From: Thermodesulfovibrionia bacterium
Lineage (GTDB): Bacteria; Nitrospirota; Thermodesulfovibrionia; UBA6902
Reading direction: 5' to 3'
NCBI GenBank assembly: GCA_947259645.1
Contig: CAMYND010000012.1
Coordinates: 20,793-84,792, forward strand
DNA: 64,000 nucleotides
Under the pieces are notes generated by a model. The model was not told the DNA's origin. It searched no databases and was given only the letters and a program-made list of their open reading frames with translations. Positions 1,030-56,100 of the stretch are shown here, piece by piece. Each line of letters opens with the position of its first letter. Within the stretch, counting starts at the first letter, position 1. Both the position numbers and the translations under genes were made by a program.

Positions 1030-1130
1030 GGTCGCCCTCTCATTTAGTGTCTGTCAAAGTTCAGGATGTTTCAATTTAAACACCCTTAACAGTTGACAGC
1101 TCAACATTATGTATATACTAATATACCTTT

Positions 1131-13253: not shown

Positions 13254-13277
13254 CACCAATTTGATACAGGAGGAGTA

Positions 13278-13742: not shown

Positions 13743-13790
13743 GATGATTTTGACTTCTTGATGTACCTCGTGCGGGAAGGACTTAATTAT

Positions 13791-15524: not shown

Positions 15525-16353
15525 AGGACAGGATCCGGCGTGGTGCCCGGGATGCGGTAATTTTGGAATACTGAATACATTCAGGGATGCAATGGTTGAA
15601 CTGGATATGAATCCCCATCAGTTTACGGTTGTCTCCGGTATTGGACAGGCTGCCAAATTTCCCCATTATATAAAATGCAACACCTTCAATGGCCTTCACG
15701 GGAGGGCACTTCCGGTAGCCACCGGTATTCGACTGGCAAACCATGAACAACCGGTCATGGTATTCACCGGTGATGGAGACTGTTACGGTGAGGGAGGTAA
15801 TCATTTCATCCACACCATGAGAAGGAACATTAATGTGAAGCTTTTTGTCCATGATAATCAGATCTACGGCCTAACAAAGGGCCAGGCATCACCAACCAGC
15901 ATGGAAGGCATGAAAACCAAAAACCAGCCCTTTGGTGTTTTCTCGGAGCAGATGAGTCCGATGGCTCTTGCAGTGGCAATGGACTGCAGTTTTGTCGCAC
16001 GGACATTCGCTGCTGACAGTGAGCATCTCAAGGCAATGATCAAGGCTGCTCTCAACCATAATGGTTTTACCCTGGTAGACATATTGCAACCCTGTGTCAC
16101 CTTTAATAAAATAAACACATTTCAATGGTACAAAGAGAGAGTTTATCATATCGAACCTGACTATGATCCTGAAAACAGGGTTCAGGCTTTTCAACGGGCA
16201 CTGGAGTGGGGTGACCGGATACCGCTCGGAATCCTCTACAAAAACAACCGGCCAGCACTTGAGGATAGAATACCGATAATATCAAATAAGAGTCTGTTAA
16301 AACAGCAGCTTAACCCCTTGAAGCTCGAAGAAACTTTAAGGGAATTTTACTAA
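15502..16353 (+). CDS. korB: 2-oxoacid:ferredoxin oxidoreductase beta subunit (TPP-binding)
   Basis: 283 aa. WCPGCGNFGIL N-terminus plus the GDGD TPP-binding motif (VFTGDGDCYGEGGNHFIH). Overlaps korA by 23 nt (translational coupling). Confidence 0.85.
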   Translation: MPSLQDYKGQDPAWCPGCGNFGILNTFRDAMVELDMNPHQFTVVSGIGQAAKFPHYIKCNTFNGLHGRALPVATGIRLANHEQPVMVFTGDGDCYGEGGNHFIHTMRRNINVKLFVHDNQIYGLTKGQASPTSMEGMKTKNQPFGVFSEQMSPMALAVAMDCSFVARTFAADSEHLKAMIKAALNHNGFTLVDILQPCVTFNKINTFQWYKERVYHIEPDYDPENRVQAFQRALEWGDRIPLGILYKNNRPALEDRIPIISNKSLLKQQLNPLKLEETLREFY

Positions 16354-16374
16354 TCCCCAAAAGGAGGTAGTTAA

Positions 16375-16704
16375 ATGGCAACAAAAAAGAAGGCAGCTGG
16401 AAAGAAGAAAACAGTCGCCAAGAAGAAAACAGCCGCGAAAAGGAAAACAGCTGCGAAGAGGAAAACAGCACCAAAAAAGAAGGCCTATGTCTGTTCTACC
16501 TGCGGAGCAGGCACATCATCAAAGGGGCATCTCTGCACACCGGTAGTTGCTGACGAGGCATATTCCTGTGATTACTGCGGGAAGGTGGTTGGAGATCCCA
16601 GACATGTATGCAAGCCAAAGGCCGCAAAGATCTCTTATGTCTGCGGCGGATGCGGAAGAACAGCAGCAAAGTCAACAGAAGTATGTATGCCTAAAAAGAT
16701 ATAA
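16375..16704 (+). CDS. Small protein with a histone-H1-like lysine/alanine-rich N-terminal tail and three tandem Y-x-C-x2-C-G-x7-8-C-x-P cysteine repeats
   Basis: 109 aa: MATKKKAAGKKKTVAKKKTAAKRKTAAKRKTAPKKK + YVCSTCGAGTSSKGHLCTP / YSCDYCGKVVGDPRHVCKP / YVCGGCGRTAAKSTEVCMP. Strong RBS aaaaggaggt. Confidence 0.5.
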   Translation: MATKKKAAGKKKTVAKKKTAAKRKTAAKRKTAPKKKAYVCSTCGAGTSSKGHLCTPVVADEAYSCDYCGKVVGDPRHVCKPKAAKISYVCGGCGRTAAKSTEVCMPKKI

Positions 16705-16733
16705 GGGACTGTAAGCTTCTCTGCACTGCCGCT

Positions 16734-16774
16734 TGACCTCTTTTCAGGAAAAGCGGCAGTGCATATACCTCCGC
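16734..16774. terminator. Perfect 13-bp inverted repeat hairpin downstream of the Cys-repeat gene (possible terminator; no U-tract)
   Basis: tgcactgccgctt-(15 nt loop)-aagcggcagtgca. Confidence 0.25.
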
Positions 16775-16946
16775 GATATCACTGTCGTATCCGGGTACAC
16801 GGGATATTCAGGTATGTTCAACGCAACCATTAATTGATGCTACTCAATCTGTTCCTGATCCTGGTGGGTATAATTATTTGCCCGGCATGATAAATTAAGA
16901 TATACTAGGGCATAAAATTAGACTTGAAAAGGAATGAGTCAGTAGA

Positions 16947-17135
16947 ATGAATGAAATCATTAACAGTATTACGAATTACGCCCAGTCAAATACTGGAGCT
17001 GCTGTGGCAGCTGGATTTCTTATGCTTGTTCTTCTGATCCGGCGAACCAAACTGTTTTTTATTCTGCTTGCCATAGCGATTGCCGGGGTAGGGATAATGA
17101 AAATCTTTGATAAAATTTCTGCTACGGGGTTATGA
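16947..17135 (+). CDS. Small hypothetical membrane protein (62 aa, two predicted TM helices)
   Basis: MNEIINSITNYAQSNTGAAVAAGFLMLVLLIRRTKLFFILLAIAIAGVGIMKIF... is hydrophobic. An RBS-like aaaaggaatgag lies upstream. Confidence 0.3.
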   Translation: MNEIINSITNYAQSNTGAAVAAGFLMLVLLIRRTKLFFILLAIAIAGVGIMKIFDKISATGL

Positions 17136-17181
17136 AGCAATATATGATATTCACATTAATGTGCGCTGACAGGAGCGAAGG

Positions 17182-18057
17182 ATGATACAAAAGATAACCG
17201 ATATATTTGAGAAAAAAAAGAGAACCTTTTCATTTGAGTTTTTTCCGCCCAAGACCCGGAAGGGAATAGAGAACCTGTACAGGACAGCTGAAGAACTGAA
17301 CAAGCTGGGACCGGATTTTGTGTCAGTAACCTACGGAGCAGGTGGATCATCACGGGGAACGACCATGGAAATCTGTGTTGAGCTGCAAAAGCGATTTGAT
17401 ATTTCTGTTATACATCATCTCACCTGTGTGGGACACAGCCAGGATGATCTGAAAGGCATTCTCGACACGCTGAAAACCAATGAAATAAAAAATGTCCTGG
17501 CATTAAGAGGTGACCCGCCAAAAGGAGTTGAAGACTGGCAGCCGTCGCCTGATGGTTTTGAATACTGCTATCAGTTAAATGATCTCATACTCAGCAGGTA
17601 TGAAGACTTTTTCAGTATCGGTGTTGCCGGTTTTCCTGAAGGGCATATAAACTGCCCGGATAAAGATACAGACACAAAGTATCTGAAAATAAAGATGGAC
17701 CATGGCGGTGAATTTATTGTTACGCAGCTTTTCTTTGATAATACTATTTACTCGGAATACCTTGACAGGCTGAGCAGGGCAGGGGTAACAGCCCGTGTTC
17801 TGCCGGGGATCCTCCCGATCACAAGCTACGACGGTCTGATTAAATTCTGCAATATGTGCGGTGCAACGGTTCCGGATGAAGTACATAAGATATTTAAGCC
17901 CCTGAGCGGTGATGATGAGGCAACATACAAGGCAGGTGTTGACTTTGCTGTAAGGCAGTGTAAGGACCTTCTTGAGCGGGGTGCTCCGGGCATACATTTC
18001 TTTTCGCTGAACAAGGTAGAACCAGCAACAGAAATATGGAACAAACTGGGGCTTTAG
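17182..18057 (+). CDS. metF: Methylenetetrahydrofolate reductase
   Basis: 291 aa. SFEFFPPKT ... VSVTYGAGGSSRGTT ... HLTCVG motifs are characteristic of MetF. Confidence 0.9.
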   Translation: MIQKITDIFEKKKRTFSFEFFPPKTRKGIENLYRTAEELNKLGPDFVSVTYGAGGSSRGTTMEICVELQKRFDISVIHHLTCVGHSQDDLKGILDTLKTNEIKNVLALRGDPPKGVEDWQPSPDGFEYCYQLNDLILSRYEDFFSIGVAGFPEGHINCPDKDTDTKYLKIKMDHGGEFIVTQLFFDNTIYSEYLDRLSRAGVTARVLPGILPITSYDGLIKFCNMCGATVPDEVHKIFKPLSGDDEATYKAGVDFAVRQCKDLLERGAPGIHFFSLNKVEPATEIWNKLGL

Positions 18058-18334
18058 GCAAAGGGTCTGCGGGATTGGCCCTGTCCTGTTATCAATGTTT
18101 TGCAATGACCTCTTCAAGGCTCATGAAACATATCTATTCTTCATCACTAAAAGGTGACCTTGTCAACTGTGTTCAATCATCTGTGTTCAATTATCTGAAA
18201 TGAGCATAATTTTATCAAAATAGGGATAATCCCTTGCCTCATCTGATCAAAAGGGATAAAATAACGTCTGGTAAAAATGAACCCTGCTCTTCATGACCTG
18301 TTCTCATGTCATGATTCACGACGACGTATAATTA

Positions 18335-19579
18335 TTGCAAACAACCGCACGAATAATGAATAAAAGGATACGGTTAAGAAAACTGCTGCAGCTGAAGGCA
18401 GGCCTGATCATTTGTGTCATTGCGGTCACGCTTTATCTCTTTAATGGATGCAGCCTGCTGTTGAGGCCGCCCGCTGTCCCGAACTTAAAAAAGTTATCAC
18501 CCCGTGAGGTGTCTGCCAATAACTGGGCAGATGACCTTGCATATTCCGGATTGAGATCAGCTGCCGAACAATCTATCCGATACTACAGGAGACTCCCTGA
18601 AACACACCGCTTCGAATATGGTGAACTTTTCTATAGTCCATCCGAGATGATGTCGTCACTCAACCTTTTTCTCGATATCATTAATAATTATGACGGTACT
18701 GATAGAGAAAGACAGATCCAGGACAAGTTCATCTTCTTTGAAAGCAGGAATTCCCAGGGCACAGCTTTTTTTACCGGTTACTATGAGCCTGTTCTTCATG
18801 GGAGTCTCACCCCTACCGATGAATATCCAGAGCCGCTGTTACGTACGCCTCTGGATTTGATCAACGTTGATCTTGGGGAGTTTTCTGAGAAATGGAAAAA
18901 TGAATTTATTGTTGGTCGTGTAATCGGCAATAAGCTTGTCCCCTATGACTCAAGGGATGAGATCGTGTATCAGAAGTCCCTCAACCAGCTGGCTCAGCCT
19001 ATTGCATTTGTAAATGAAATAGAACTGTTCTTTCTCCAGATACAGGGGTCCGGAGTCGTTAAACTTGATAACGGGACAGTGATACGCGTGAATTATGCAC
19101 AGAAGAACGGTCATCCCTACAGGGCGATCGGACGCATATTAACGGACAGGATACCTCCTGAAGAAATGTCATTACAGTCTATCAAGGCTTACCTGAACAG
19201 TAATCCTGAGGAGGTAAGAGAAATTCTTAACTATAACCAGAGTTATGTTTTCTTTCGAACAGTCGAAGAAGGTCCCCTCGGCGACATAGAAGTGCCCCTT
19301 ACCCCAGGACGCTCCATCGCCATGGACAAGAGGGCGGTTCCCAGAGGGGGGCTGGCATACATTAAAACAGAACTTCCTGTGATAGAAAATGATCTGATAA
19401 CAGGCTGGAGACCCTCTCAAAGGTTTGTGCTTGTACAGGATACAGGAGGAGCAATCCGCGATCATGGAAGAGTAGACATCTTTATGGGGAACGGGGAACC
19501 TGCTGCTCTATCTGCAGGTCACCTGAAAAACAGAGGCCAGGCTTTTCTGCTTGTAGCCCGCAAAAAATACCTGCAATAG
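18335..19579 (+). CDS. mltA: Murein transglycosylase A-like lytic transglycosylase (MltA family, 3D domain)
   Basis: 414 aa with a lipoprotein-type N-terminus (LFNGC), the MltA-domain motif FFTGYYEPVLHGS and a C-terminal 3D domain (VLVQDTGGAIRDHGRVDIFMGNG). Confidence 0.75.
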   Translation: MQTTARIMNKRIRLRKLLQLKAGLIICVIAVTLYLFNGCSLLLRPPAVPNLKKLSPREVSANNWADDLAYSGLRSAAEQSIRYYRRLPETHRFEYGELFYSPSEMMSSLNLFLDIINNYDGTDRERQIQDKFIFFESRNSQGTAFFTGYYEPVLHGSLTPTDEYPEPLLRTPLDLINVDLGEFSEKWKNEFIVGRVIGNKLVPYDSRDEIVYQKSLNQLAQPIAFVNEIELFFLQIQGSGVVKLDNGTVIRVNYAQKNGHPYRAIGRILTDRIPPEEMSLQSIKAYLNSNPEEVREILNYNQSYVFFRTVEEGPLGDIEVPLTPGRSIAMDKRAVPRGGLAYIKTELPVIENDLITGWRPSQRFVLVQDTGGAIRDHGRVDIFMGNGEPAALSAGHLKNRGQAFLLVARKKYLQ

Positions 19580-28623: not shown

Positions 28624-31518
28624 ATGAAAGGAACCTTTGCAATGGCAGCCATAAACAGAACAAAAGACGGGCATCTGCTTGGCCCGGATGAAGAAATTAA
28701 GTATACCACCTGCTACATGTGCGCATGCAGATGCGGTATTAAAGTTACCCTGAAGAACGGTAAAGTTCGCTATATTCAGGGTACTCCTGATCATCCTACA
28801 AACAAGGGAGTTATCTGCGCGAAGGGCTCGTCCGGCGTTATGAAACAGTTCAGCCCGGGACGCATAACAAAACCCCTATTACGGAGGGAAAACGCTGAAC
28901 GCGGTGAAGCTGACTTCGAGGAAATATCCTGGGACGAGGCCATGAACATCATGGTCGAACGCCTGAAAAAAATACGGGGCACTGATCCGAAAAAACTTGC
29001 ATTTTTCACCGGTCGTGACCAGATGCAGGCGCTCACTTCATACTGGGCGAAACAGTTCGGAACACCGAACTTTGCGGCCCATGGCGGATTCTGCTCAGTA
29101 AACATGGCAACAAGCATGATCTATTCGTTCGGAGGTACCTGCTGGGAATTTGGCGGAACTGATTTTGAGAGAAATAAATATATGATGCTCTTTGGTGTTG
29201 CCGAAGACCATGACTCAAATCCCCTCAAGCTCGGGATCTCAAAGCTCCGCGAGCGTGGCGGGAAACTGGTCGTGATAAACCCTGTGCGTTCAGGCTATGG
29301 CGCTGTCGCTGACGAATGGCTGCCGATCAGGCCGGGAACTGACGGGGCCTTTATACTCGCCATGATTCAGGTACTTCTGAAAAACGGCCTCTATGACAGG
29401 GAATTCCTGATTACTCACACAAACGCTCATCACCTGATCCAGACTGATGAGGGAGATGAGAATGAGGGGATGTTTCACCTCATTCCCGAATGGGAGATGG
29501 AGGAAACACAGCAGACGGTCTGGGACAACAAGACAAAATCGATTAAGGAAGCACACACCAAGGGTACAGACCCCGCTCTCGTCGGAGAGTTTATGGGCCC
29601 CGAGGGAAAGACATTAAAGACGGGGATGCAGCTTCTTATTGAACGGGTCATGAATGATTACACGCCTGAAAAAGCAGCTACCATATGCGGCATCCCTGCT
29701 GAGACAATTGAGAGGATTGCTCTGGAGATCGGCATTACAGCGAGGGATGAAACCATCTCGTTGCCCATTCCCTGGACTGATGTGTGGGGTAATGAGCACA
29801 AGACAACAACGGGCAATCCTGTTTCAGTCCATGCAATGCGCGGCATTGCCGCGCACTCAAACGGATTTCAGACCGGAAGGGCTCTCTCTCTCTTCATGAT
29901 GCTTTTAGGAATCATTGACAGGCCCGGCGGTTTCAGGTTTAAGCCTCCCTATCCCAAGCCGATACCACCCTGTCCGAAACCGATCAATCACGCAAGCAAA
30001 ATAAAACCTGACACACCGCTGCCTGCGCCCGAACTGGGATTTCCTTCAATGCCTGAACATCTCATGGTAGATGATAATGGAAAGCCTCTCCGAATTGACA
30101 AGGCATTCAGCTGGGAATTTCCGTTCACAGCTCACGGAATGATGCATAACGTCATTACGAATGCCTACAAGGGAGACCCTTACCATATTGATACCCTCAT
30201 CATTTTTATGGCCAACATGAGCTGGAATTCTACGATGAACACCAGCGGGGTCATTGAAATGCTGAAGGCACGGGACGAGCAGGGCAAGCACAAAATCCCT
30301 TTTCTTATTGTCAGTGACGCTTTCTTCAGTGAACAGGTTGCTTATGCCGACCTTGTTCTGCCGGATACGACATACCTAGAACGACATGACGTCATCTCAC
30401 TTCTGGACAGACCTATCTGTGAGTACGACAAGGTCGCTGACGCGATACGGCATCCGATTCTGGAGCCGAAGGGCGAATGCAGACCGTTTCAGCAGACATT
30501 GATTGACCTGGCAAACAGGCTCGGGCTTCAGGGGTTTACAAATGAAGCCGGCGATCCCCTGTATGAGACATATGAGGAGTTTGTAACCAACTGGCAGCCG
30601 AGCCCTGAAGCTGGCGTTGGTTTTCTCGCGGGATGGAGAGGAAAGGACGGAACAAGTCACCTTGTAGGTGAGCCCAACAGCAATCAGTGGGAATCCTACA
30701 AAAGAAATAAAAGCTTTTTTGAGATAGAGCTCGAAGACACCATCAAGTACAACCGCAACATTAATCAGGGTTACCTCAACTGGGCAATGGGACATAAATT
30801 TAAACGGGACAATGAACCGATCATCATGCACTTTTATTCTGAGCCTCTCCAGCGGTTTCGCCTTGCGGCAAAGGGTTTAAGGAAAGGGCGTAAGCCTGCC
30901 ACAGCATCACAGCGGGAGAGGATAATCAGGTATTTTGATCCCCTGCCGTTCTGGTACGAGCCCATTGAACACCAGAAGGTGAGTTCTGAGAAATATCCAT
31001 TCCATGCCATAACCCAGCGGCCAATGCCGATGTATCATTCCTGGGATAGTCAGAATGCGTGGCTCAGGCAGATCCTGGGTCAGAACTTCTTATATATAAA
31101 TCCTGTTGCGGCCGAGAAGATGAACATCAAGGATCTTGACTGGGTATGGGTTGAATCTCCTATCAGCAAAATCAGGGTTCAGGTAAAACTTTCCAATGCT
31201 GTTGAGGTCAACACTGTCTGGACATGGAACGGCATGGGCAAAATACCGGGTGCGTGGAACCTCGATGAAAACGTAGATGAAGCGAAAAAGGGTTTTCTCC
31301 TGAACCACCTGATCAGTGAAGAGATTGACCATGATGAAGGCCTCAGGATATCAAACAGTGATCCGATCAGTGGTCAGGCTGCATGGTTTGATTTGAGGGT
31401 CCGCATTTCAAAATCAAAAGAAAGCGGGCACTGGCCTGAATTCAAGGCGATTAAGCCCCTGGCTCACATGGACAAGCGACCGGATATATTGAGGTATGAA
31501 TTTATCAGGGATAAGTAA
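28624..31518 (+). CDS. Molybdopterin-dependent oxidoreductase catalytic subunit (DMSO reductase family; Psr/Phs/Ttr-like), no twin-arginine signal
   Basis: 964 aa. N-terminal 4Fe-4S MopB motif CYMCACRCGIKV...C(AKG). Stop codons lie in all upstream frames and no RR motif is present. Confidence 0.85.
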   Translation: MKGTFAMAAINRTKDGHLLGPDEEIKYTTCYMCACRCGIKVTLKNGKVRYIQGTPDHPTNKGVICAKGSSGVMKQFSPGRITKPLLRRENAERGEADFEEISWDEAMNIMVERLKKIRGTDPKKLAFFTGRDQMQALTSYWAKQFGTPNFAAHGGFCSVNMATSMIYSFGGTCWEFGGTDFERNKYMMLFGVAEDHDSNPLKLGISKLRERGGKLVVINPVRSGYGAVADEWLPIRPGTDGAFILAMIQVLLKNGLYDREFLITHTNAHHLIQTDEGDENEGMFHLIPEWEMEETQQTVWDNKTKSIKEAHTKGTDPALVGEFMGPEGKTLKTGMQLLIERVMNDYTPEKAATICGIPAETIERIALEIGITARDETISLPIPWTDVWGNEHKTTTGNPVSVHAMRGIAAHSNGFQTGRALSLFMMLLGIIDRPGGFRFKPPYPKPIPPCPKPINHASKIKPDTPLPAPELGFPSMPEHLMVDDNGKPLRIDKAFSWEFPFTAHGMMHNVITNAYKGDPYHIDTLIIFMANMSWNSTMNTSGVIEMLKARDEQGKHKIPFLIVSDAFFSEQVAYADLVLPDTTYLERHDVISLLDRPICEYDKVADAIRHPILEPKGECRPFQQTLIDLANRLGLQGFTNEAGDPLYETYEEFVTNWQPSPEAGVGFLAGWRGKDGTSHLVGEPNSNQWESYKRNKSFFEIELEDTIKYNRNINQGYLNWAMGHKFKRDNEPIIMHFYSEPLQRFRLAAKGLRKGRKPATASQRERIIRYFDPLPFWYEPIEHQKVSSEKYPFHAITQRPMPMYHSWDSQNAWLRQILGQNFLYINPVAAEKMNIKDLDWVWVESPISKIRVQVKLSNAVEVNTVWTWNGMGKIPGAWNLDENVDEAKKGFLLNHLISEEIDHDEGLRISNSDPISGQAAWFDLRVRISKSKESGHWPEFKAIKPLAHMDKRPDILRYEFIRDK

Positions 31519-31559
31519 AAGGTAATAAAAAATACTGTATTTAATGTGGAGGAATATAG

Positions 31560-32291
31560 ATGAATAAGCGAATGGCTCTGGTAATAGACCTGAATAAGTG
31601 CGTTGGCTGCCACGCCTGCGCAACGAATTGCAAGGCCTGGAATACAGGAGGAGATTACGGACCGTTGACAGACGTTGAACCATACGGAAAGAACCCTGAC
31701 GGTGTCTGGTTTAACCGCGTGCAGACCTATGAGGTTGGAAAGTACCCCAATACAGAAATCCTTTATCTGCCAAAATCCTGCATGCACTGCAAGGACGCGC
31801 CGTGTGTCAAGGTATGCCCTACGTCGGCAACATACAAGAGGGAATCGGATGGAATCGTACTGGTCAATTATGAAGAGTGTATCGGATGCAAGTACTGTTC
31901 CTGGGCCTGTCCCTATGGTTGCCGTGAATTTGATGATTATGACGGTGTTATGAAAAAGTGCACGCTCTGCGTTGACCGGATTTACAATGAAAACCTTCCG
32001 GAAGAAGAAAGACAGCCGGCATGTGTGCTTGCATGCCCTACACGGGCGCGGACCTTTGGCAATATCAATGACCCGGAAAGTGAAGCCGCCGTGAAGATCA
32101 AAGAAAGAAACGGGTATAAACTTATGCCTGAAGTAAGCACAAGTCCATCAAACCATTATCTTCCGAAGCAGAAGGTCAAGATACAGATTGATGAGGATGA
32201 AATACTGACCAGAAAGCATGTGATCGTCGAGACTGAAAAGAAAGTCTCCTCATACGCTGAAGTAACATCAGATGATATTGCTGTACCATAA
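31560..32291 (+). CDS. 4Fe-4S ferredoxin-type electron-transfer subunit (DmsB/PsrB/TtrB family)
   Basis: 243 aa. Four Cys clusters (CVGCHACATNC, CMHCKDAPCVKVCP, CIGCKYCSWACP, CTLCVDR...). ALVIDLNKCVGC N-terminus. Confidence 0.85.
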   Translation: MNKRMALVIDLNKCVGCHACATNCKAWNTGGDYGPLTDVEPYGKNPDGVWFNRVQTYEVGKYPNTEILYLPKSCMHCKDAPCVKVCPTSATYKRESDGIVLVNYEECIGCKYCSWACPYGCREFDDYDGVMKKCTLCVDRIYNENLPEEERQPACVLACPTRARTFGNINDPESEAAVKIKERNGYKLMPEVSTSPSNHYLPKQKVKIQIDEDEILTRKHVIVETEKKVSSYAEVTSDDIAVP

Positions 32292-32388
32292 AAAATAATG
32301 CAACGGCATATTTCATATGCCCGCGCACACGATAACTGTACGATTAGCGTTTAATAAATGAAAAAAATATAATCAGGAGGAACGAACT

Positions 32389-33408
32389 ATGCATCCGGAA
32401 ATATCTCTCGTATTATTGACAGTTCTGGCAGGGGCAGGCCAGGGGATATTCATTTTACTTGTGGCTCTGAATTCATTGTTTTATGGCACGGGGGCTGTAC
32501 CCTCAGAATATATTGTGGCAGCAGGCGCCATTTCTCTTCTGTTTCAGGTAGGTGGTATCATAACAAGCACAGCCCACCTCGGTAATCCCCACAGAGGCTG
32601 GCGGGCCATGTTAATGATAAAGAACTCCTGGTTGTCACGGGAGGTGGTTACGCTTTCATTGTCCGTTGGGATCACTGCTCTCTATCTTCTTTTATACTAT
32701 TCAGGGGCAACCGGTACTGTTCTTTTTGTGACAGGTATGGTCGGCATTGCGGCCAATCTCGGTTTTTATCTTTCCTGTTCAATGGTATACGCCTCGGTGA
32801 CGTTTATAAGGGAATGGTCAAATGCATTTACGCCATTAAACTTTACCCTCTTTGGTATAACCTCAGGTTTTGGAGTAAACCTGGCAATTGCGCACTATAC
32901 TCACGTCAACACTGACATCTTATTCGGAATAAATTCACTGACTCTTGCTCTTGCCCTGGTCGCGTTGATAATGAAACTATTGTCATACAGGTTTAACGCA
33001 ACGGCCTATGTTTCGGTAAATGTAAAAAACGCCATAGGTGTCAATGATCCAAACATTAAGTTAATGGATATGGGGGCTTCCTACGATCATTACAACACAA
33101 AAGAGTACTTTTATGAGAACGCTGAAAAGATCACCAGAAAGACGATGTTTCTTGTTCTGACGGTTGCCTTTCTTGTTCCTATTATCCTCTGGACCGTGGC
33201 CGCACTTAAGAGAGAAATGGCCTATATTCCTGAGTTGACCGTTATTGCGGCAATTGCCATGATAGCGGGACTTATAATTGAACGCCGCTTTTTCTTCATT
33301 CAGGGCAACAATGTTCAAAACCTTTATTACGCCAACTTCAGGAGCACTGGTGTGAGAAACCCTCTTGAGAGCAGAGCGCGTAAAGGTACTCCCGTCCCCA
33401 TGAACTGA
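32389..33408 (+). CDS. Membrane anchor subunit (DmsC-like, about 8 TM) of the molybdoenzyme
   Basis: 339 aa, highly hydrophobic with about 8 predicted TM helices, immediately downstream of the catalytic and FeS subunits. Confidence 0.6.
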   Translation: MHPEISLVLLTVLAGAGQGIFILLVALNSLFYGTGAVPSEYIVAAGAISLLFQVGGIITSTAHLGNPHRGWRAMLMIKNSWLSREVVTLSLSVGITALYLLLYYSGATGTVLFVTGMVGIAANLGFYLSCSMVYASVTFIREWSNAFTPLNFTLFGITSGFGVNLAIAHYTHVNTDILFGINSLTLALALVALIMKLLSYRFNATAYVSVNVKNAIGVNDPNIKLMDMGASYDHYNTKEYFYENAEKITRKTMFLVLTVAFLVPIILWTVAALKREMAYIPELTVIAAIAMIAGLIIERRFFFIQGNNVQNLYYANFRSTGVRNPLESRARKGTPVPMN

Positions 33409-33438: not shown

Positions 33439-34572
33439 TTAACAGTCAACTATTTTGAGGCTGTTTTTCAGTGACGATGATATATCCCCTGTGTTGTTTG
33501 CCGTTGCAATAAATATGACGTTTGAGAGGTCATAGGGCAGCTCGATAAAATTGTCTACAAAATGACGGTTTTTATCGGAGTTAAAAACATCACGCATGAG
33601 TGTTCCGAAACTCCCGTCAACTTTATCAAGATCATTAATCATGATAACAGGGTTGGAAGTGCCGGATTGACATATGTTTTCGATGATGCGCCCCGGGAAC
33701 TGCCCTCCAGACAATCTGTTCTCACCCGTAATGTCTGTTTCTTTTTTGATATCATTAAAAGATATTTCTCTGAATTCCCTGCCCAGAGCAGTTGAAAGGG
33801 CTTTTCCGATCATTGCTTTTTTTTCAGATGATGACCCGCTCAGGCAAAGAATAGTGCGTCCTGCTGAACCTGATCGTTTACTGTCCAGTGCCTCAGAAAC
33901 GATTGCTCTTAATTCATTAATCTGAAGGGGCTTGACAAGATAATGGAAGGCGCCTTTTCGCATCGCTTCAACAGCTGTTTCTGTAGTAGCATAGCCGGTT
34001 ATTACTATTACGTCTGTCTCGGGGTACATTTTTTTTGTTTTCTCCAGAACATAGATGCCGTCAATATTTGCCATCCTTAAGTCAGTCAGAACAATATCAA
34101 ACCGGGAACTCTCCAGTTCAACTATCGCATCTTCACCGCTCGGGCTGGTCACTACTTCATACCCTTCTTTCCTTAACAGGCGAGCGATATTTTTCAGGGC
34201 AACTTCTTCATCGTCGACAACAAGGATTCTTGGACAGGGGGTTATTTTAGGGCTCTGGAGGGACAGATGTTTAACAATAGCAGTTCTCGCATCAGGGGCG
34301 ATATCAGGGAGATCATTCAGGCTGTTCTCTATTTTTGTCATATCCGAGAAATCCCCTGTTGTCCGGCTCCAGGGAAGTTTTATGAGGTAATCAATATAGC
34401 TGGCGGTTTTCCGATATTCAGGCGATTCCGAAGAAGACTGTGATAAAAAATCCAGTGCTTTTAGGGCCATCTGAAGAGCAGGAGGCGGAAGTTTAGCCGA
34501 TGTAACAGCATCATGCAGGCGATCATAGGGTGGAATCTGGTGACTGTTCTCTCTGTCGTTGATTTCAGTCAA
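33439..34572 (-). CDS. Response regulator with a receiver domain inserted into a degenerate, protease-less Lon AAA+ module
   Basis: Lon-like segment 1: YIDYLIKLPWSRTTGD...VKHLSLQS (Lon: YLDWLxxLPW...RILEYLAVQ). REC domain: RILVVDDEEVALKNIARLLRKEGYEVV...DIVLTDLRMANIDG...LVKP. Lon-like segment 2: GRTILCLSGSSSEKKAMIGKALSTALGREFREISF...SGGQFPGRIIENICQSGTSNPVIMINDLDKV...NFIELPYDLSNVIFIATAN (Lon: [34 protein letters not shown]...PGRIIQ...NPVFLLDEIDKM...HYLEVPFDLSKVMFIATAN). Walker A and B are degenerate. The protein ends before any protease domain. Confidence 0.7.
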   Translation of the reverse strand: MTEINDRENSHQIPPYDRLHDAVTSAKLPPPALQMALKALDFLSQSSSESPEYRKTASYIDYLIKLPWSRTTGDFSDMTKIENSLNDLPDIAPDARTAIVKHLSLQSPKITPCPRILVVDDEEVALKNIARLLRKEGYEVVTSPSGEDAIVELESSRFDIVLTDLRMANIDGIYVLEKTKKMYPETDVIVITGYATTETAVEAMRKGAFHYLVKPLQINELRAIVSEALDSKRSGSAGRTILCLSGSSSEKKAMIGKALSTALGREFREISFNDIKKETDITGENRLSGGQFPGRIIENICQSGTSNPVIMINDLDKVDGSFGTLMRDVFNSDKNRHFVDNFIELPYDLSNVIFIATANNTGDISSSLKNSLKIVDC

Positions 34573-34771
34573 TGTTAACTCCGGTACTGTTGGATAGAAT
34601 AAACATGGGCCGTACTATTTCATAGCCTTGACCTGATGGTCTATATTCAGTATATCAGGATGGAGAGGACAAGTAAATTTAGAGAATTCATTATTATAAA
34701 AATTTATATGCTAATCAATATCTTCCTAATGGCAAGGTTTTTAGGGTACTCTTTAACCATACTTTCCTGTT

Positions 34772-36523
34772 ATGCAACTCAAAATCTGGCATAAGATGAT
34801 CATAGGGATCACCATTCCTTCCCTAATTGCTGTACTTGGGGGAATCCTGACCTATGGCTACATTAATGATATCAAGCACAGGCAGGAATATGTTCAAGTC
34901 GCAGATGACCTCAAGGAAAATGTTTTTGAGGTCAGACGGAATGAAAGAAATTTCCTCACATTTAAAAACAGTGATTATCACAAAAGAGTTCATAGATCAA
35001 TTGAGGAGCTCAGACAGGCGATAAACAGTATTTCTCCCCATACGTCTGAAGAGATCGGCGAGGGAGGTTTTACACTCCTGAATGATTCAATAGATGAATA
35101 TGCAAAACTCCTTGACGCCCTGGTTGTGAGTTATACAAAGGAGCAGGACGTGATCAGAAAAGTGAAGTCCGAGGGAGAAAAGCTTGAATCCATTGTGTCG
35201 AAGAAAAGAGGTGCAAAGGAGTTTACTCCGAGTTTTATCCTGAAGTTGCGGCTCCTTGAAAAGAATTATATGTTCTACCGTGACAGGAAATCATATAACG
35301 ATCTTGGCAACGGGTTATCTCAGATTAAGAACCTGACACCATTCTGCTTTGAATGCGATCCCTATGTGAATTCCATACAAGATCTCTTTGCAGTGTATGA
35401 GGTAAGCGACGACATTCTCGGCAATTTGCAGAACACGGGAAATGAACTGGAGGAAGTGTCCGGCAGGATCGCATTCAGGGAACGGCAAAAAATAGGTTCC
35501 TTTATTAATCGTTCACAAAGTCTGCTTCTGGCAGCCCTTGCTCTTCTGTTTGTGCTGGGACCGTTATTTGTGTATAAAACATCAGCTTTTGTTGTAGCGC
35601 CGATAAAGAGGCTCTCGGAAATAACCAGGAAAATAGCAGGGGGTGAGATATCATTAAGAGCTCCATTGAAAGAGCATGATGAAACCTACTCACTTTCCGC
35701 ATCCTTTAACACCATGCTTGACCATCTGCAGAGTACACAGCAGAACCTGAAAGAGAGTCTTGAGCTTCTCAACGAAAAACAGGCTCAGCTGGTAGAGTCG
35801 GAAAAACGCGCATCCCTTGGCCTGCTTGTTGCGGGTGTTGCCCATGAACTGAATAATCCACTGAATAATATTTCCCTTGCCGCAGAGGCCATGAAGGAAG
35901 AGATTCATGAGTCAACAGAAGAAGAAATGAGCGGATACATTTACGACATCCTGATGCAAAGCAAACGGGCCCATAACATTGTGGAAAGCCTCCTCGACTT
36001 TGCCAGGGCCAGGAAATCAACTGTCATGGAAAAGCAGGATATCATCAAGATAGTAAATGATTCACTGTACCTTGTATCAAACCAGCTAAGAATCAATAAT
36101 ATAAAGCTGGTCAAGGATCTACCTGAAAAACCCTTCTTTGTGAAGGGCAACCAGAGCAAGCTGGAACAGGTTCTCATCAGTATGTTTATCAACGCCATCC
36201 ATGCGATGAAAGATACAGGAACGCTGGGTATCAAGGTACAGCCTGATACTGATAACAGGCATGTGCTCATAGAAATAAGCGATACAGGCTACGGTATTGC
36301 TGAAAAAGATATGAAGAACATATTTGAACCCTTCTATACAACAAAACCGCCGGGTGAAGGCACCGGACTCGGGCTGTCTGTAAGCAATGCCCTTGTTATG
36401 GAGCATAAGGGGGAAATCGATATTGAAAGCAAACCAGGGGAGTGGACAAAATTCAGGATAAGACTTCCGCAGTATGAAGAGTCAGGAGATTTTGTTGCTG
36501 ATCAGGGTTCATTGCATGTCTGA
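34772..36523 (+). CDS. Sensor histidine kinase (periplasmic sensor, HAMP, HisKA, HATPase_c)
   Basis: 583 aa. Two TM segments flanking a sensor region of about 230 aa, HAMP, H-box SLGLLVAGVAHELNNPLNNI, and N/G boxes (NAIHAM..., GTGLGLSVS). Divergent from the Lon-REC regulator. Confidence 0.8.
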   Translation: MQLKIWHKMIIGITIPSLIAVLGGILTYGYINDIKHRQEYVQVADDLKENVFEVRRNERNFLTFKNSDYHKRVHRSIEELRQAINSISPHTSEEIGEGGFTLLNDSIDEYAKLLDALVVSYTKEQDVIRKVKSEGEKLESIVSKKRGAKEFTPSFILKLRLLEKNYMFYRDRKSYNDLGNGLSQIKNLTPFCFECDPYVNSIQDLFAVYEVSDDILGNLQNTGNELEEVSGRIAFRERQKIGSFINRSQSLLLAALALLFVLGPLFVYKTSAFVVAPIKRLSEITRKIAGGEISLRAPLKEHDETYSLSASFNTMLDHLQSTQQNLKESLELLNEKQAQLVESEKRASLGLLVAGVAHELNNPLNNISLAAEAMKEEIHESTEEEMSGYIYDILMQSKRAHNIVESLLDFARARKSTVMEKQDIIKIVNDSLYLVSNQLRINNIKLVKDLPEKPFFVKGNQSKLEQVLISMFINAIHAMKDTGTLGIKVQPDTDNRHVLIEISDTGYGIAEKDMKNIFEPFYTTKPPGEGTGLGLSVSNALVMEHKGEIDIESKPGEWTKFRIRLPQYEESGDFVADQGSLHV

Positions 36524-36760: not shown

Positions 36761-36835
36761 AGGCGCGTAGCTCAGGGGGAGAGCGCTTCCCTGACACGGA
36801 AGAGGTCGGCGGTTCAATACCGCCCGCGCCTACCA
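36761..36835 (+). tRNA. tRNA-Val (anticodon GAC), CCA encoded
   Basis: Cloverleaf folded by hand: acceptor AGGCGCG/CGCGCCT, D-arm GCTC...GAGC, anticodon stem CTTCC/GGAAG with loop CTGACAC (GAC), T-arm GGCGG-TTCAATA-CCGCC, discriminator A, CCA. Confidence 0.9.
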
Positions 36836-50123: not shown

Positions 50124-53100
50124 TCAATACTGGCCAACCCCATTAATGAACCAGCCGTGACTCCGGTAGTCAAGGTCTGTGAGGTCATCGTCAAAATCAG
50201 TAAAATTGTATCCAAGGCCAAGCTTAAAATATTTATTCATGCGCCGGTAGATGCCGATAATGAGGCCATGGCGCTGGTCATCTGCTTCCTGTACTCGCAG
50301 CCACTGATATTTCAGCAGTCCGTCCCACTTTTCGTGGAGATAGTAACGACCGATAATTGCAGCATAATCAACTTGTGTATCATACCAGTCCCCGTCACCT
50401 CGCTCTTCCCTGATCTGTCCCAGTTTATATGCGTATTTGGCCCCCACCTCAATGCTGTGTCCCAAATCATAAATTCCTTCCAAAGAGAAGACATGTGACT
50501 GTTCATCCAGATTATCTCCATCATCCTGCCCGGGCCCCCCAAGGTCATAGAGATAGGTATACTTGCCCAACATATTCAACCGGTCGTCTGAAACCGGGCG
50601 GTAGGCAAAACCTAAATCAGCTTCAATAAATTGCGCGTCACCATCAGGATCGATCCTGTCATCAGTATTGGAGATATTCAGTTTTCCCAACAGCGTTAAC
50701 CAGTCATATGCCTGATAGTTAATAGAGTTTGTTGTTAGCCACTGTTGTATCTCTTCCTGCCCGCTATCGTGGCGATACTCAAGTTTAGTTCCCGAACGTG
50801 TTTTATCATCTTTATAATTAAGTGAGACCGTTCCGACATTCCGCTCAGTGTCACCCGTTGACCCCTCTGTATCGCTTGACTGGAAGGAAATACCAAGGGT
50901 TGTCCATTTTGAAAGAGCATAGTCAAGCCCATATACCTGAGCAATGCCTGCCTGTACATCACCATGGTTGTACTGATGTTCCGTATACACATTGAGCTGG
51001 TTGCTTATTGCACTGCGCTGCCCGATAGTAAAAATACCGCGGCTGCCGTCAGTGCGGTCCTTTGAAAGGGTATACGTCCCGTAGATGGTTCTCGTGTCAC
51101 TTTGAGCATAGTCTGCACCGAGATTCACAGAACTTCCCCGGTCACCCGCACTGACTTCAGCACTGACAAATAATTTACGTATGATTTTTGCTCTTATACC
51201 AAGAGTCGCCATTTTATTGTTTTTATAGTATTCGTTTTTATCGAGCATTAATTGACCTGCGCCATATACATTGATATGAGGGGTTATATCATAGGCGAGA
51301 CGCAGGGCACCGAGAGTTCCTTGTACTTTATTCTCATCTGCCGGCTCCTCTGTAGTATGTCGCACTTCACTGCTCACCGTCCACTTATCGCCGACTCTGT
51401 AGTCTGCCTGCAGGCTTAAGGCCTTTTCTCTTTTCACTGTAGCCTGACTCAGCACGGTCCCTCGAAGAGACAGGGATAGCTCATCTGTTATGTTACCGTG
51501 GCCCTCTACACCGTATTCAACAGTCTTGTACCGATCGCTGAGGCGAGAGATTGAAAAACCGTCATCCCGTTCTTTCCACCATGCTGCTACAGCACCATCG
51601 TATTTGTTATCTGACATCTCAAGGAGATTCATACGTGCCTCGAGACTGACCGCATGACCGCTGATATCATTTGATGAAGTTATTGGATTCTTATCTGTAA
51701 AGCCCAGTCCACCATCACTTGAGGTGAAGGCATAATTACTTTGGCGGGCATCACTGGCAGCGAATTCTCCTTTTAAATACGTACCTCTTCCTGCCTTGAC
51801 GGTTACGTCAAATCCTTTGAGTTCATAGTCGGTGTTATCTCTGTTCTCATGAACATACGTTCCGCCAATGGCAATATGGTCACTAATCCAGCCTTTACCG
51901 CGCGCACCATATGTAGCCTTGTCAGCATCAAACCCACTGGGCACATACTCATAGTCAACCATTAAAAAGACATCATTTCCGTCCAGCGGCTTATCTTTGA
52001 TAATAGATGGACCGCTTTGATTCGCAATCTGGGTGAGAGGGCGTGAAAGTATAATCCGCCCCTGGATCTCATCAATCTCATAATCACGACCGCGCACAAG
52101 AGGAATATTCTCAACAACACGCTCAGTGTCACGCCCGCGTATTTCTACCCATATTTTTTCAGATCCCTGAACAAGATCAGTATTTTTCAAATAATAAAGG
52201 CTTCCGCCCGTTGCTTTGAGTTCATTATGGGCAAATGCGGTCTGAGCCTCTGACGCAAAGGCTGCCAATTCAGTACCGGTCAAACTGGTATTATAATTCC
52301 CCCACAGGACCTGGGACTTGTCCCAATCAACGCGCACATAAAACTTACCCTGGCTGTCGGTATCCTGAATAGTTGTTGAATCATCGCCATATACAGGATA
52401 AAAACGGTCAGGATCGAGTCGTCTGAAAACAGCGCGAGGATCTTTTTTATGGAGGTTACTGAATATATTATTGAGTTCATCTTCCTGCGTATCCATCTGG
52501 GCAGTAACCAGGTACTTCCCTTTGATTTTCCCCTTGAGGTAAAATGCCAGGCGCCCGTCTACAAAGACTTCTTCATCGAAGTGGTCATCAACAGACACTG
52601 GTTCAACGCTGCCGGATATGTTGTTTTCACCAACCGTTAAATCCGCTATGCCGACCATGAAGAAATAGTTTTCTGTCACATCAAGAGAAAGCTCCCTTTT
52701 CCATATCGCACCCCTTCTGTCAATAATATCTACTCTGAACGTATGCTGACCGGAAGCGAGAAGATGCTCAACAGCAAAGCTGCCATCGCTGTCGAGAGGG
52801 ACAGATTCATCATTTACCTTTAATGTGTACCCCTCCGGGATATCTGACCCATGGATCCTCACCCGGCTCCCGGCAATCGGTATCGTCTGCCGTGCCAAAT
52901 GGGACTCACCGTAGATTTCAGCGCCTTTGAACGTACCTTCGCCGGACTGTTCTTTCGTAGTGATTGAGGTGTCATCATATTCATTTACAAGATAAAGCCT
53001 TCGTGGTTTTGTTTGATCCAGATGGCCCTCACTATCATAAACTCTCAGTACATAGAGGAGTTCTTTTCCGGCACTCAGTCTGATATCTGAATCAGTTTCT

Positions 53101-56100
53101 CCTGACCATTGTACCGTGTCAGCCAGGCTGATCTTATTGCCCTTAATGACTTTAAGTGGCTTTACAAAATCAGTATCAGTTGCATGGGTAATTATTAATT
53201 CCCAATGATCAATAAAAGACCGGTAGTTTGAATATATACTAAAATCGACCGGTTTAATGAGACTTCCATCTCTTGTCATCACATTTGTTGTAGCTGTTAT
53301 ATCGAGACGCGGATCAACAATGGCAGGGTCCTGGGTTGCCCATATAACGCCGCCATCAGGAAGCCTCAGCCTGCTTCTGAGTTCCATGGAAGCCGGTTGA
53401 TTCTCCACCACCTTGCGCTTTTCTGCAGGGACTTTTTCTTCAATTACCTTCACAATAATTTCATCGTACCAGATCTCAACCTCAACCCGGCGATTCTGTG
53501 CCCTACCTTCAGGTGTGTCATTGTCAGCTATTGGTTCGTTGGGCCCTTTTCCCTCATAAGTCATGAACTCACCCGGAAGCTGGATTGCCTCCCGCAGGAC
53601 CTCTCCTGCCATTTCCGCTCGAGCTCGAGACAGACCATAATTGTTTTTATAGAGCTTCCTTGTGCGAGGTTTGACTACAGGTTTATTATCAGTGTGGCCA
53701 ATTATGTGCAGTCGGAGGTTTTTCTTGCCAGAAAGACCGTCTATTACCGTAATTAATGACTTTTTATCCGTCTCGCTGATGCGTGAATTGCCCGATTGAA
53801 AACGCAGAGGTTCTATAATATATTTCAGTTTTACTGTCTTTGTTTCGATAATTTTTCTTTGTTTTATCGTAAAGTTGCCGGAACTGTCAGAACCTGTAGC
53901 ATTCTTGTCCCGGTCAACTATTTCCATTGTGTATCCATTACTTCCGGAACAGACTGCGGTTTGACATTCTCTGCTTTTTTCAGGAAATTCATCTGCGTGT
54001 GCGGTGCCTATAAAAATATCACCGAGCATCCCGAATATGTCACCTATCATCGGCAGCACTGATCCTGATTCTCCGGAATCCTTAATCTTATCAGGTGATT
54101 CAGTTTTTGATGATGAGTCGATCAAAATGATTTTCAGATTTTTCATGATCTCTTCACCGAGGAGTTCTGTGAGAGCTTTTCGCAGACTATCTGCACGTCG
54201 AAGAGAAAGATCTTCCCGGGGATTCTCCAGAGCAACTCTTATTGTTCCATGGCGGTAAACTCTTATGGCACTTGCAATCTTCTCAATATTTGGTCGATAT
54301 TCCGAGCGGATACTGGATTGGCCGGCTTCGAAAAAGAGTTCACCCAGGTTTACCTTGACTTCTTTTTCAGGCAATGCCTGTGCTGGCAATTTTATGCCAA
54401 AGTTAATCTTACTCATTATCCCCTGGGTTATGCGCAGCACCCGCGGGTTTTCAGTAGTAAAGAGCGCACCCTGCGGCAATGTTGCGGAATCAACCTTGAT
54501 TATGAAATTGCGGCCGCGCTCGAATCGTCCGCCATCTACATCTGCTATGTGGTAGCGGCCATAAGAATCTGTTTCAATAAGAAGCCCGGAAGGAGTTGCC
54601 AGCCTGACTCCGGGAATTCCCTGTTCATGAATACCATGGTTTGTGATGGTAATCACTAACTCGTGATGGGTAGCACTCGGTGGTGTTGATGTACCGATAG
54701 GCTTACCTTCAACATTAATGGTTCTTTTCACCACAATATTCTGTCCTGTTAATCCACGGGCTTTATCTCCTCTATGTTCAGCCCTGATATTTCCTTCTTC
54801 GTCAATAATAAGCCGTGTGCCCTCTTTTGTTGTGATGATTATGTCAGAGAGGACAGCTGTATTTACCGTCGTTCGAATAATAACCTGATGATTATCAGGC
54901 AGATCAGACTCACTGCTCCGTCCAGGCAAACTGCCAACTGATATTCCTACCTCCGGGGATATATAATTTTCCTCTGCTTTCCGTGCTCCGTCACCAAAAT
55001 CAATAGTCGTATTGCTTATGTCAATCAGATCAGTCTTTATGTAAATGTCCAGAGCATCAGCAGAATCCTGCCACCCGTCTTCATCGCGGTCATTGAAGAC
55101 CTTACCAATAATTGTTGTTTTCTCAAATATCGGATCAGCAATAACCACAACGCTTTCAATGGCAGTATTCCCTATAATATTGTTATTAAAATATGGTGTT
55201 GCCCGGTTGATATATTCACCCTGAGTAATACCTGAACCGGCCCGGAGCAGATACCTGAATTGCACTTTTTCATTTCCGGCAAGGTCTATAGGCTCAAAAA
55301 TCAAGGGCCTGTAACCAGTGACGCTGATAGATGATTTGATGTCATCAGAGGTATTTATCAGTCCATCGGCTCCTGCACGCACCAACCTGGCTGAGGTATC
55401 CACATATTTAAAACCGGCTGGAATTAAGTCATGGAGAGTTATGTTGTTTATCAACATTGATTGTGTGTTTTCAGCGGTGACAGTATAGCTCACCATGTCA
55501 CCTATAGTAACTTCCTTTTTTGATGCCTTCTTTGTGAGCAGTATTGATCCGGATGACGGCGGATCAAGAGGGATGTCGTTGCCGATAAGGTCACCGCTCC
55601 CAACAATAAACCTGAATGCGAGGTAATACACGCCGGTATTAATTCCATCCGGATTATTCACTGCTGGTCCTGGTAATGGATCAGGAGCTGCCGATGGAGG
55701 GATAAGAGTTGATCTGAAGCTATAACTTGCATTCGGGGGTGTTACCTCGATAACATAGCTGGCAATGCCTGCAAGTGCCCACGCGTATGCTCCATCTGCA
55801 GCAGTTACCTGAGTAAAGGCCACAAAATCTCCCGCATCAATTACTCCATTGGTATTGTTGTCCTGGTAGATATTAACAACAGCATTTTCAATCGGATCCC
55901 CTGTTACCGCGTCGTAGACAATACCAGCAGGATCAATATATGGAAAATTAGCGATTACAGTACCGCCGGGAACCACATTAACCTGCCGTTGAGAACCTCT
56001 GAATGTACTGTTTGGCTGATCCACAACAACCATCACCGGACTTTCCATGACATTTGCAAAGGTATAGAACCCGTTAGCATCCGTAGTGGTTGTCTGTAAT

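Follow-up and report, generated by a model that had tools for sequence, protein, structure and literature searches.

Two-component systems usually control transcription, and regulated proteolysis usually proceeds via separate adaptors, of which RssB and CpdR are examples. In response regulators of the NtrC1/DctD/AtoC-type family, phosphorylation of the receiver controls the assembly of an AAA+ ring, while in LAP1 and LULL1 a nucleotide-free AAA-like fold co-assembles with an active AAA+ paralog, Torsin, to which it donates an Arg finger and which it activates. Here, we describe a regulator of 377 amino acids (aa) encoded beside a histidine kinase in a 64,000-nucleotide (nt) stretch of contig CAMYND010000012.1 from a Thermodesulfovibrionia bacterium (this whole stretch is referred to as the window). 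An earlier reading of the DNA made from its letters alone, referred to here as the original prediction, had described the protein as a receiver domain spliced into a catalytically dead, protease-less Lon AAA+ module. Judged by sequence, the window protein is a truncated and fast-evolving paralog that belongs within a clade of full-length receiver-Lon proteases, which we call REC-Lon.

The regulator resembles several described systems in part. The 3-helix bundle with its LPW motif and the AAA+ alpha/beta subdomain of LonA (B. subtilis, PDB identifier 3m6a; Meiothermus taiwanensis fragment, PDB identifier 4ypn) match the regulator in sequence and in fold, but the regulator is devoid of the N-domain, the lid, the S16 protease, Walker A and B, the pore Tyr and the Arg finger of LonA and has a receiver inserted in it. 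Full-length REC-Lon (for example P0036, named 'endopeptidase La', from Thermodesulfovibrionales) shares with the regulator the site of the receiver, ancestry and an association with a kinase; however, the long forms keep the GPPGTGKT, GHRRTY and DE motifs, the Arg finger, the lid and the protease, all of which the regulator has lost. Although the receiver is of the same type as in NtrC1, DctD and AtoC, the AAA module of the regulator is of the Lon type and not Sigma54_activat, and it has neither a GAFTGA loop nor a helix-turn-helix (HTH). LonC and related Lon-like proteases with a degenerate ATPase (PMC3391209) likewise represent a Lon lineage in which ATPase function was lost, but LonC keeps its protease domain and hexameric chamber and has no receiver, whereas the regulator has lost the protease. 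RssB, in which a receiver is joined to an inactive PP2C domain and which controls proteolysis post-translationally as the ClpXP adaptor for RpoS (PMC6546054, PMC3877760), would be the closest functional analogy, as it is a response regulator with a dead-enzyme output; it differs in having a PP2C fold and not Lon AAA, and in not being derived from the protease that it serves. For the mechanism proposed below, the closest analogy may be that of LAP1 and LULL1, where an AAA+ enzyme is regulated by a nucleotide-free paralog.

No curated family for the receiver-Lon architecture is present in Pfam or NCBIfam, and REC-Lon proteins are found in public databases under automated names only, some of the long relatives being named 'endopeptidase La', 'S16 family serine protease' or 'ATP-dependent Lon protease'. 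Our searches of the full-text literature, mostly open-access, turned up neither a receiver-Lon fusion nor a truncated derivative, in agreement with the original prediction, which knew of none; an earlier mention elsewhere is possible. A targeted reading of a survey of serine-protease architectures likewise gave no receiver-Lon fusion. We consider the architecture to be new both as a response-regulator output and as a layout for regulating Lon, and it comes with a conserved pseudo-enzyme derivative. As the receiver of REC-Lon is part of the Lon protease itself, direct gating of an AAA+ protease by a kinase would be possible, and the window protein is a natural pseudo-enzyme, with a kinase of its own, that may tune or terminate Lon assembly. 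If true, this would add a new output class to the response-regulator catalogue, offer a tractable natural case of AAA+ regulation by a truncated paralog, and provide a design principle for phospho-switchable proteolysis.

Domain architecture of the regulator

The regulator starts with a TTG codon, with GGAG 6 nt 5' of it (coordinates of the gene and its domains are given in Table 1), and a protein database search returned a record for an identical protein (P0001). Pfam finds Response_reg at residues 116-225 (PF00072, 3e-28) and a generic AAA match at residues 243-369 (PF00004, 2e-6). Lon specificity comes from NCBIfam, where the top match, above all response-regulator models, is the Lon equivalog TIGR00763 (3.7e-37), which aligns in two stretches, with residues 232-375 of the regulator mapping onto residues 346-493 of Lon. 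The score of 128 bits falls far under the model cut-off of 608, which is what a fragment would be expected to give. Lon proteases also rank first in a phmmer search against the PDB, the match to B. subtilis LonA (3.9e-30) being again in two pieces: residues 19-106 correspond to residues 13-100 of the 3m6a chain and residues 233-376 to residues 102-249. Since these pieces adjoin in B. subtilis Lon and lie 126 residues apart in the regulator, the receiver is a clean insertion, which these alignments place in the short linker that leads from the 3-helix bundle to the first strand of the ATPase.

The regulator was modelled with AlphaFold2 using the family alignment. The model has a mean predicted local distance difference test score of 84.3, with the helices of the 3-helix bundle at residues 16-106, and is poorly defined only at the first 11 residues and in the linkers at residues 108-111 and 233-238. 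The best match to this model in a Foldseek search of the PDB is 4ypn, with an E-value of 1.9e-17 and a template modelling (TM) score of 0.86 normalised over the target. This structure was deposited as a LonA fragment consisting of the 3-helix bundle and the AAA-alpha/beta domain, that is, the regulator minus its receiver. The TM score to the receiver-AAA structures of NtrC1 and NtrC4 is 0.31. Thus, the profile match to TIGR00763, the two-piece match to 3m6a and the fold match to 4ypn bear out the Lon-specific similarity on both sides of the receiver that had been noticed by eye.

The possibility that the flanking segments derive from a generic or sigma54-type AAA module was considered and rejected, as Lon models and Lon structures are clearly ahead. 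Neither Sigma54_activat (PF00158) nor a GAFTGA loop is found in the regulator using Pfam and NCBIfam, and the matches of the NCBIfam EBP models cover its receiver but reach no farther than ~40-60 residues into the AAA fold. The receiver is 45-59% identical to the receivers of sigma54 activators. The RssB_Pseudo model also matches the receiver only, the PP2C domain being absent. Pfam detects no DNA-binding or other output domain in the regulator, HTH included, and no match at E<=1 to the N-terminal LAN/PUA-like domain of Lon (PF02190); the N-terminus begins ~15 residues ahead of the 3-helix bundle.

Loss of catalytic residues and of the C-terminal domains

The status of the catalytic motifs was assessed from an alignment of the regulator with full-length relatives and B. 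subtilis Lon. Walker A, GPPGTGKT, has changed to GSSSEKKA (G246-A253, positions 33814-33837) and the DE of Walker B to N313-D314, which agrees with the degenerate P-loop and Walker B reported in the original prediction. In addition, the Tyr of pore loop 1 is replaced by S288 and the Arg finger by S371, and the HYGL motif of active Lons is gone from the 3-helix bundle. The Asn of sensor-1 is kept (N359). The receiver residues D120, D121, D164, T192 and K214 are intact, among them the phospho-acceptor Asp (D164) and the Lys (K214) singled out earlier, and are invariant in 24/24 aligned sequences, comprising both short relatives with the architecture of the regulator (short forms) and the full-length relatives (long forms).

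The C-terminus of the regulator, residue 377, falls exactly where the lid ('SGYTE...') starts in full-length relatives. As had been proposed, the lid and the protease domain are missing: Pfam finds neither the lid (PF22667) nor the S16 protease domain with its Ser-Lys dyad (PF05362) in the protein, and when the 64-kilobase (kb) window was searched by tblastn, using a full-length relative as query, neither a lid nor a protease sequence came up. The proposal that the protein stops right after sensor-1 was accurate in that the chain stops before the lid; it ends, however, one strand later, at the position of the Arg finger. The convergent neighbouring gene ends 30 nt from the end of the regulator gene. 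We also considered a split gene, with the lid and protease encoded separately nearby, and rejected this idea, as no match was found in the window or at any short-form locus. From the residues and domains lost, the Lon parts of the regulator would be unable to hydrolyse ATP, translocate a substrate or cleave a peptide bond; four of the five defining features tested fail, and the regulator would qualify as a Lon protease by no functional criterion.

Short, long and intermediate members of the REC-Lon family

Relatives of the regulator were sought among 5.8 billion proteins. The search yielded short relatives of 352-382 aa with the same architecture as the regulator and 36-52% identity to it, and long relatives of ~625-655 aa with an added lid (PF22667) and protease (PF05362). 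A family alignment was made of 17 short and 7 long forms, in which all 17 short forms share one end column; the same length and end point are common to at least 19 short sequences, from different samples and down to 36% identity. None of 19 short forms keeps the pore-loop Tyr or the DE of Walker B, one keeps the Arg finger and three, of subgroup B (see below), keep a canonical P-loop (GPAGSGKT), whereas every long form keeps GPPGTGKT, GHRRTY, the Walker B DE and the Arg finger. In an exhaustive profile search of 1.84 billion cluster representatives, full-length matches were confined to a handful of 50%-identity clusters, among which are the more divergent short forms P0128 and P0130.

In a scan of one genome per species, long REC-Lon is present in at least ~40 species (open reading frame (ORF) calls of 666-800 aa), and only long forms are among the matches listed. 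Their hosts belong to the Nitrospirota (Thermodesulfovibrionales) and to the Desulfobacterota (Desulfomonilales, Syntrophobacteraceae, Desulfococcaceae, Desulfobulbales and Desulfovibrionaceae). With ~640-700 aa, a long REC-Lon consists of a 3-helix bundle, an NtrC-type receiver, Lon AAA+, a lid and an S16 protease, and the N-terminal domain of LonA is absent from the precomputed Pfam lists of all long forms. In the REC-Lon clade, the N-terminal substrate-binding domain is missing and an NtrC-type receiver sits in the short linker between bundle and ATPase.

Other members are intermediate between the two forms. P0127 (471 aa, cut by the end of its contig) retains the lid, the Arg finger and an intact P-loop but not the pore-loop Tyr, and its Walker B reads DK; this state of the sequence suggests that inactivation of the ATPase can precede truncation. 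In P0010 and P0012 (568-570 aa, metagenomic, from ENA), the ATPase and lid are intact and the protease domain is replaced after ~40 residues by a short, conserved tail unrelated to the protease (...TEVTFAEAGEFDTAR...); by sequence, these would be a protease-less and possibly active unfoldase form. The family thus presents a stepwise series of domain loss, from full-length members through those with a dead Walker B and pore loop and those without a protease to the lid-less dead forms, and this series should be useful for the study of pseudo-enzyme origin.

Descent and selection

A neighbour-joining tree was built from 229 columns of the Lon-derived parts with 500 bootstraps, using as outgroup three canonical Lon segments from the PDB matches and two LonA genes (loci L073 and L076). 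Canonical Lon splits from all REC-Lon in 100% of the bootstraps, and all short forms make up one clade, also in 100%, which is nested among the long forms of Nitrospirota. Within it, subgroup A, containing the window protein, is found in 99%, subgroup B in 100% and subgroup C in 91% of bootstraps. What looked like a break in the monophyly of the short forms at locus L080 was rejected: the sequence in question, 193 aa long, is a piece of a frameshifted canonical Lon that covers none of the tree columns, and it was removed; at this locus (996-3412), the canonical lon is split into at least three overlapping ORFs, which reflects either a frameshifted gene or assembly errors. Independently of the tree, the shared breakpoint points to a single truncation event. 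We consider the short forms, on this evidence from sequence, to be a monophyletic offshoot in which the lid and protease were lost at one breakpoint and the ATPase, pore-loop and Arg-finger residues were lost afterwards.

Ratios of nonsynonymous to synonymous substitution rates (dN/dS, omega) were estimated per domain by the method of Nei and Gojobori for three unsaturated pairs, one from each subgroup. The dead AAA module has a dN/dS of 0.31 in subgroup C, 0.19 in B and 0.22 in A, and the receiver of 0.22, 0.11 and 0.15, respectively. As omega lies between 0.19 and 0.31, the dead ATPase fold is under purifying selection. Receivers of short forms are, at 63%, more highly conserved than those of long forms, at 57%.

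The sensor kinase and its pairing with the regulator

As the original prediction had it, a HAMP-containing histidine kinase is encoded divergently from the regulator (Table 1). Its transmembrane segments (residues ~7-30 and ~247-277) enclose an extracytoplasmic sensor of ~215 aa, which is weakly similar, at residues ~32-240, to CHASE3/4HB_MCP. Two Cys of this sensor, in the arrangement C192-x-x-C195, are invariant in 6/6 kinase orthologs and paralogs compared, and this CxxC may serve in redox or metal sensing. Since the catalytic core of the kinase is closest to AtoS/ZraS (NCBIfam) and the receiver is like those of sigma54 activators, the signalling parts are of NtrC-system ancestry.

The original prediction had proposed a search for this architecture beside histidine kinases in other genomes, and an ortholog of the kinase lies immediately upstream and divergent at all 12 other short-form loci (L001, L002, L081-L090), the contig of L083 holding only the first 11 residues of the kinase. 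The kinase orthologs at short-form loci are 55-76% identical from residue 1, sensor included. An apparent exception at L088 was rejected, as the ORF on the same strand is spurious and the N-terminus of the kinase lies on the opposite strand. Both its sequence and its genomic setting mark the regulator as a bona fide response regulator with a dedicated and co-conserved kinase. At many short-form loci, a stand-alone receiver (119-132 aa) is co-transcribed with a kinase of the same type, or a second, paralogous kinase is present (L001, 14083-16178; L085, 779-1177; L086, 140-508; L089, 9738-10916). These additional receivers and kinases suggest branched phosphotransfer. The window locus is without an extra stand-alone receiver.

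Proposed mechanism and alternative explanations

In AAA+ rings of the HCLR clade, the large subdomain of one protomer packs on the lid of its neighbour and supplies an Arg finger. We tentatively favor, with somewhat less than even confidence, a reading in which the regulator joins a Lon-type hexamer as a phosphorylation-switched partner without catalytic activity or as a terminator subunit; it probably acts on proteolysis and not on transcription. The membrane kinase would sense an extracytoplasmic cue, possibly redox or metal via its CxxC, and phosphorylate D164, which would alter the dimerisation or docking of the receiver. The retained Lon surfaces, that is the 3-helix bundle and the large AAA subdomain, would then engage a full-length Lon-type partner. 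This partner would most likely be the paralogous REC-Lon, with LonA as the alternative: because the regulator is a truncated paralog of REC-Lon, the latter, and not the housekeeping Lon, is the most obvious candidate. Taken up as a subunit, the short form would cap or poison the ring or change its entry portal. Capping or poisoning is to be expected because the short form has neither a lid with which to recruit a further protomer nor an Arg finger with which to fire the ATP of a neighbour, and is devoid of the pore loop: it could dock onto a full-length protomer but would not propagate the ring. As the Arg finger is lacking, such an inhibitory effect is more likely than activation in the manner of LAP1 and LULL1. 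Phosphorylation of the receiver, via dimerisation or release, would make the capping conditional, and proteolysis would thereby answer a second signal without a step of transcription. We infer that the Lon surfaces were kept because they still contact a Lon-type partner, and the role of adaptor, decoy or modulator of Lon put forward in the original prediction is likewise putative but now has some support.

A more specific version, possible though doubtful, is that the short form is a 'terminator' protomer in or on the hexamer of its REC-Lon paralog, with two kinases acting directly on one AAA+ protease, one via the receiver built into the protease and the other via the dead subunit. If true, two-component signalling would here reach proteolysis through two inputs and without any involvement of transcription. 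For the long REC-Lon, we hypothesize by analogy with NtrC1 that the built-in receiver would control ring assembly or access to the portal, ring-assembly control of the NtrC1 type being its likely logic. Short and long forms do occur together: on contig L001, the gene for a short form lies 9 kb from that for a full-length REC-Lon, and each of the two has a paralogous kinase next to it, and the metagenome-assembled genome PIVU01 ('Nitrospirae bacterium Glo_13') encodes a short form on PIVU01000216 (L086) and a 672-aa long form on PIVU01000030 (L067).

Several observations weigh against a Lon-type partner, or against the history on which the proposal draws. Co-occurrence of short and long forms could be checked in two genomes only, both positive, and neither a long REC-Lon nor LonA is encoded in the 64-kb window, as judged by tblastn with a full-length relative as query. 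The Kimura distance to canonical Lon is 1.30 for the short forms as against 0.59 for the long forms, and long-branch attraction could have exaggerated the monophyly of the short forms. When the window is compared with the syntenic locus L084, the regulators are only 45% identical whereas the catalytic subunits of the oxidoreductases encoded alongside are 88% identical (iron-sulfur subunit 88%, kinase 63%, membrane anchor 62%). The 3-helix bundle has a dN/dS of 0.51 in subgroup C and 0.83 in subgroup B, compared with 0.17 in A, and is less constrained in these two lineages. Such fast evolution of the Lon-derived modules could mean that the old Lon interfaces were remodelled for a new partner.

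These points lead to an alternative that we regard as rather unlikely, in which the dead Lon module is neofunctionalised as an interaction domain for a target other than Lon hexamers, for example as an RssB-like adaptor that brings particular substrates to a protease, or in the control of respiration or of the molybdopterin oxidoreductase encoded next to it. The fast divergence of the Lon-derived parts, with receiver and kinase staying conserved, is as it would predict, and RssB, with its dead PP2C domain and its role as ClpXP adaptor (PMC6546054, PMC3877760), sets a precedent. The order kinase, short form, convergent DmsC-type anchor, 4Fe-4S subunit and PhsA/Psr-like oxidoreductase is, moreover, kept in 4/4 subgroup-A loci. 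However, this synteny is convergent and not co-transcribed, and it is limited to subgroup A, the hosts of which are close relatives (oxidoreductase 88% identical), so that a functional tie between regulator and oxidoreductase is at most putative; subgroups B and C are flanked by neighbors other than the PhsA/Psr-like operon, and we identified no substrate-binding feature in the regulator.

It is improbable that the regulator acts as a phosphate sink or through its receiver only, by competing for phosphoryl groups or forming receiver heterodimers, with the Lon parts as structural ballast. The receiver is indeed the most conserved module, and at several loci an extra stand-alone receiver accompanies the same type of kinase, but ballast would hardly be kept at an omega of 0.19-0.31 in three lineages or at a length and end point conserved across at least 19 lineages down to 36% identity, and where a stand-alone receiver is already present at the same locus a sink of 377 aa would be redundant. 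We give still less credence to a residual nucleotide switch, in which the AAA fold would bind ATP or ADP and signal without hydrolysis: the three subgroup-B members with an intact GPAGSGKT P-loop speak for it, but in the GSSSEKKA of the window protein the second Gly, the third Gly and the Thr that binds Mg are lost, most short forms being no less degenerate, and none of the short forms has the lid (sensor-2) by which the nucleotide pocket is closed. That the gene is a decaying pseudogene, a frameshifted Lon or an assembly artefact, as loss of the catalytic motifs and a length shorter than that of long relatives might imply, is scarcely credible given an intact ORF with a ribosome-binding site, the agreement in length and end point of at least 19 independent sequences drawn from different samples, an omega well below 1, no room downstream and no remnant of lid or protease; the conserved end point together with the dN/dS led us to reject this reading.

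Genomic context

The features of the regulator locus and examples of long REC-Lon are listed in Table 1.

Table 1. Coordinates of the regulator, its domains and neighboring features in the window, and of representative long REC-Lon proteins
Feature	Position	Strand	Description	Evidence
Regulator gene ('short REC-pseudoLon', subgroup A)	33439..34572	-	377 aa plus stop; 3-helix bundle, receiver, dead Lon AAA alpha/beta	
Residues 16-106	34255..34527	-	LonA-type 3-helix bundle with YIDYLxxLPW motif	PDB sequence match, predicted helices, 4ypn
Residues 115-233	33874..34230	-	NtrC-type receiver; phospho-acceptor D164 (codon 34081-34083)	Profiles, alignment
Residues 239-377	33442..33858	-	Dead Lon AAA+ alpha/beta (large) subdomain	Sequence and structure matches, motif alignment
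Divergent intergenic region, regulator/kinase	34573..34771	.	199 nt; holds GGAG of the regulator	
Sensor histidine kinase	34772..36523	+	583 aa; HAMP-HisKA-HATPase_c	Pfam, NCBIfam
Convergent operon	28624..33408	+	PhsA/Psr-like molybdopterin oxidoreductase (964 aa), NrfC/DsrO-like 4Fe-4S subunit, DmsC-type anchor	
Long REC-Lon examples	Loci L003-L075 (L003 9944-11986; L067 9331-11349)		Proteins P0021, P0022, P0029, P0030, P0033, P0036, P0038	

The long forms of Nitrospirota directly adjoin a kinase gene. The gene for the long REC-Lon of Desulfobacterota is convergent with an operon that encodes a histidine kinase and an NtrC-type regulator of ~455 aa, and one kinase may there feed both a transcription factor and a protease; this operon is found ~50-700 nt downstream of the long REC-Lon at L012, L019, L025, L033 and L038. 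At L001, inverted duplicated sets of TauE (sulfite-exporter family) and Usp genes (11668-14036 and 16340-18585) flank both kinase/receiver modules, between the genes for short and long REC-Lon.

PADLOC, which was used to look for a defence system, gives the short form only weak matches that overlap the receiver (E ~1e-6) and the kinase none, and with no relevant match an identity as an anti-phage Lon-like protein (BrxL and others) was rejected. Between the kinase gene and thrS, the window has a tRNA gene (36761-36832, plus strand), which is its sole Rfam match. By its ThrS, which is 83-84% identical to proteins of several metagenome-assembled genomes, the host of the window belongs among uncultivated Nitrospirota. 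Farther away on the minus strand, an ORF of 3016 aa (50124-59174) contains five Calx-beta repeats, DUF7933, DUF11 and an internal OmpA domain, and next after it is a Calx-beta protein of 453 aa (59152-60513); together, these look like a large cell-surface or adhesin-like protein.

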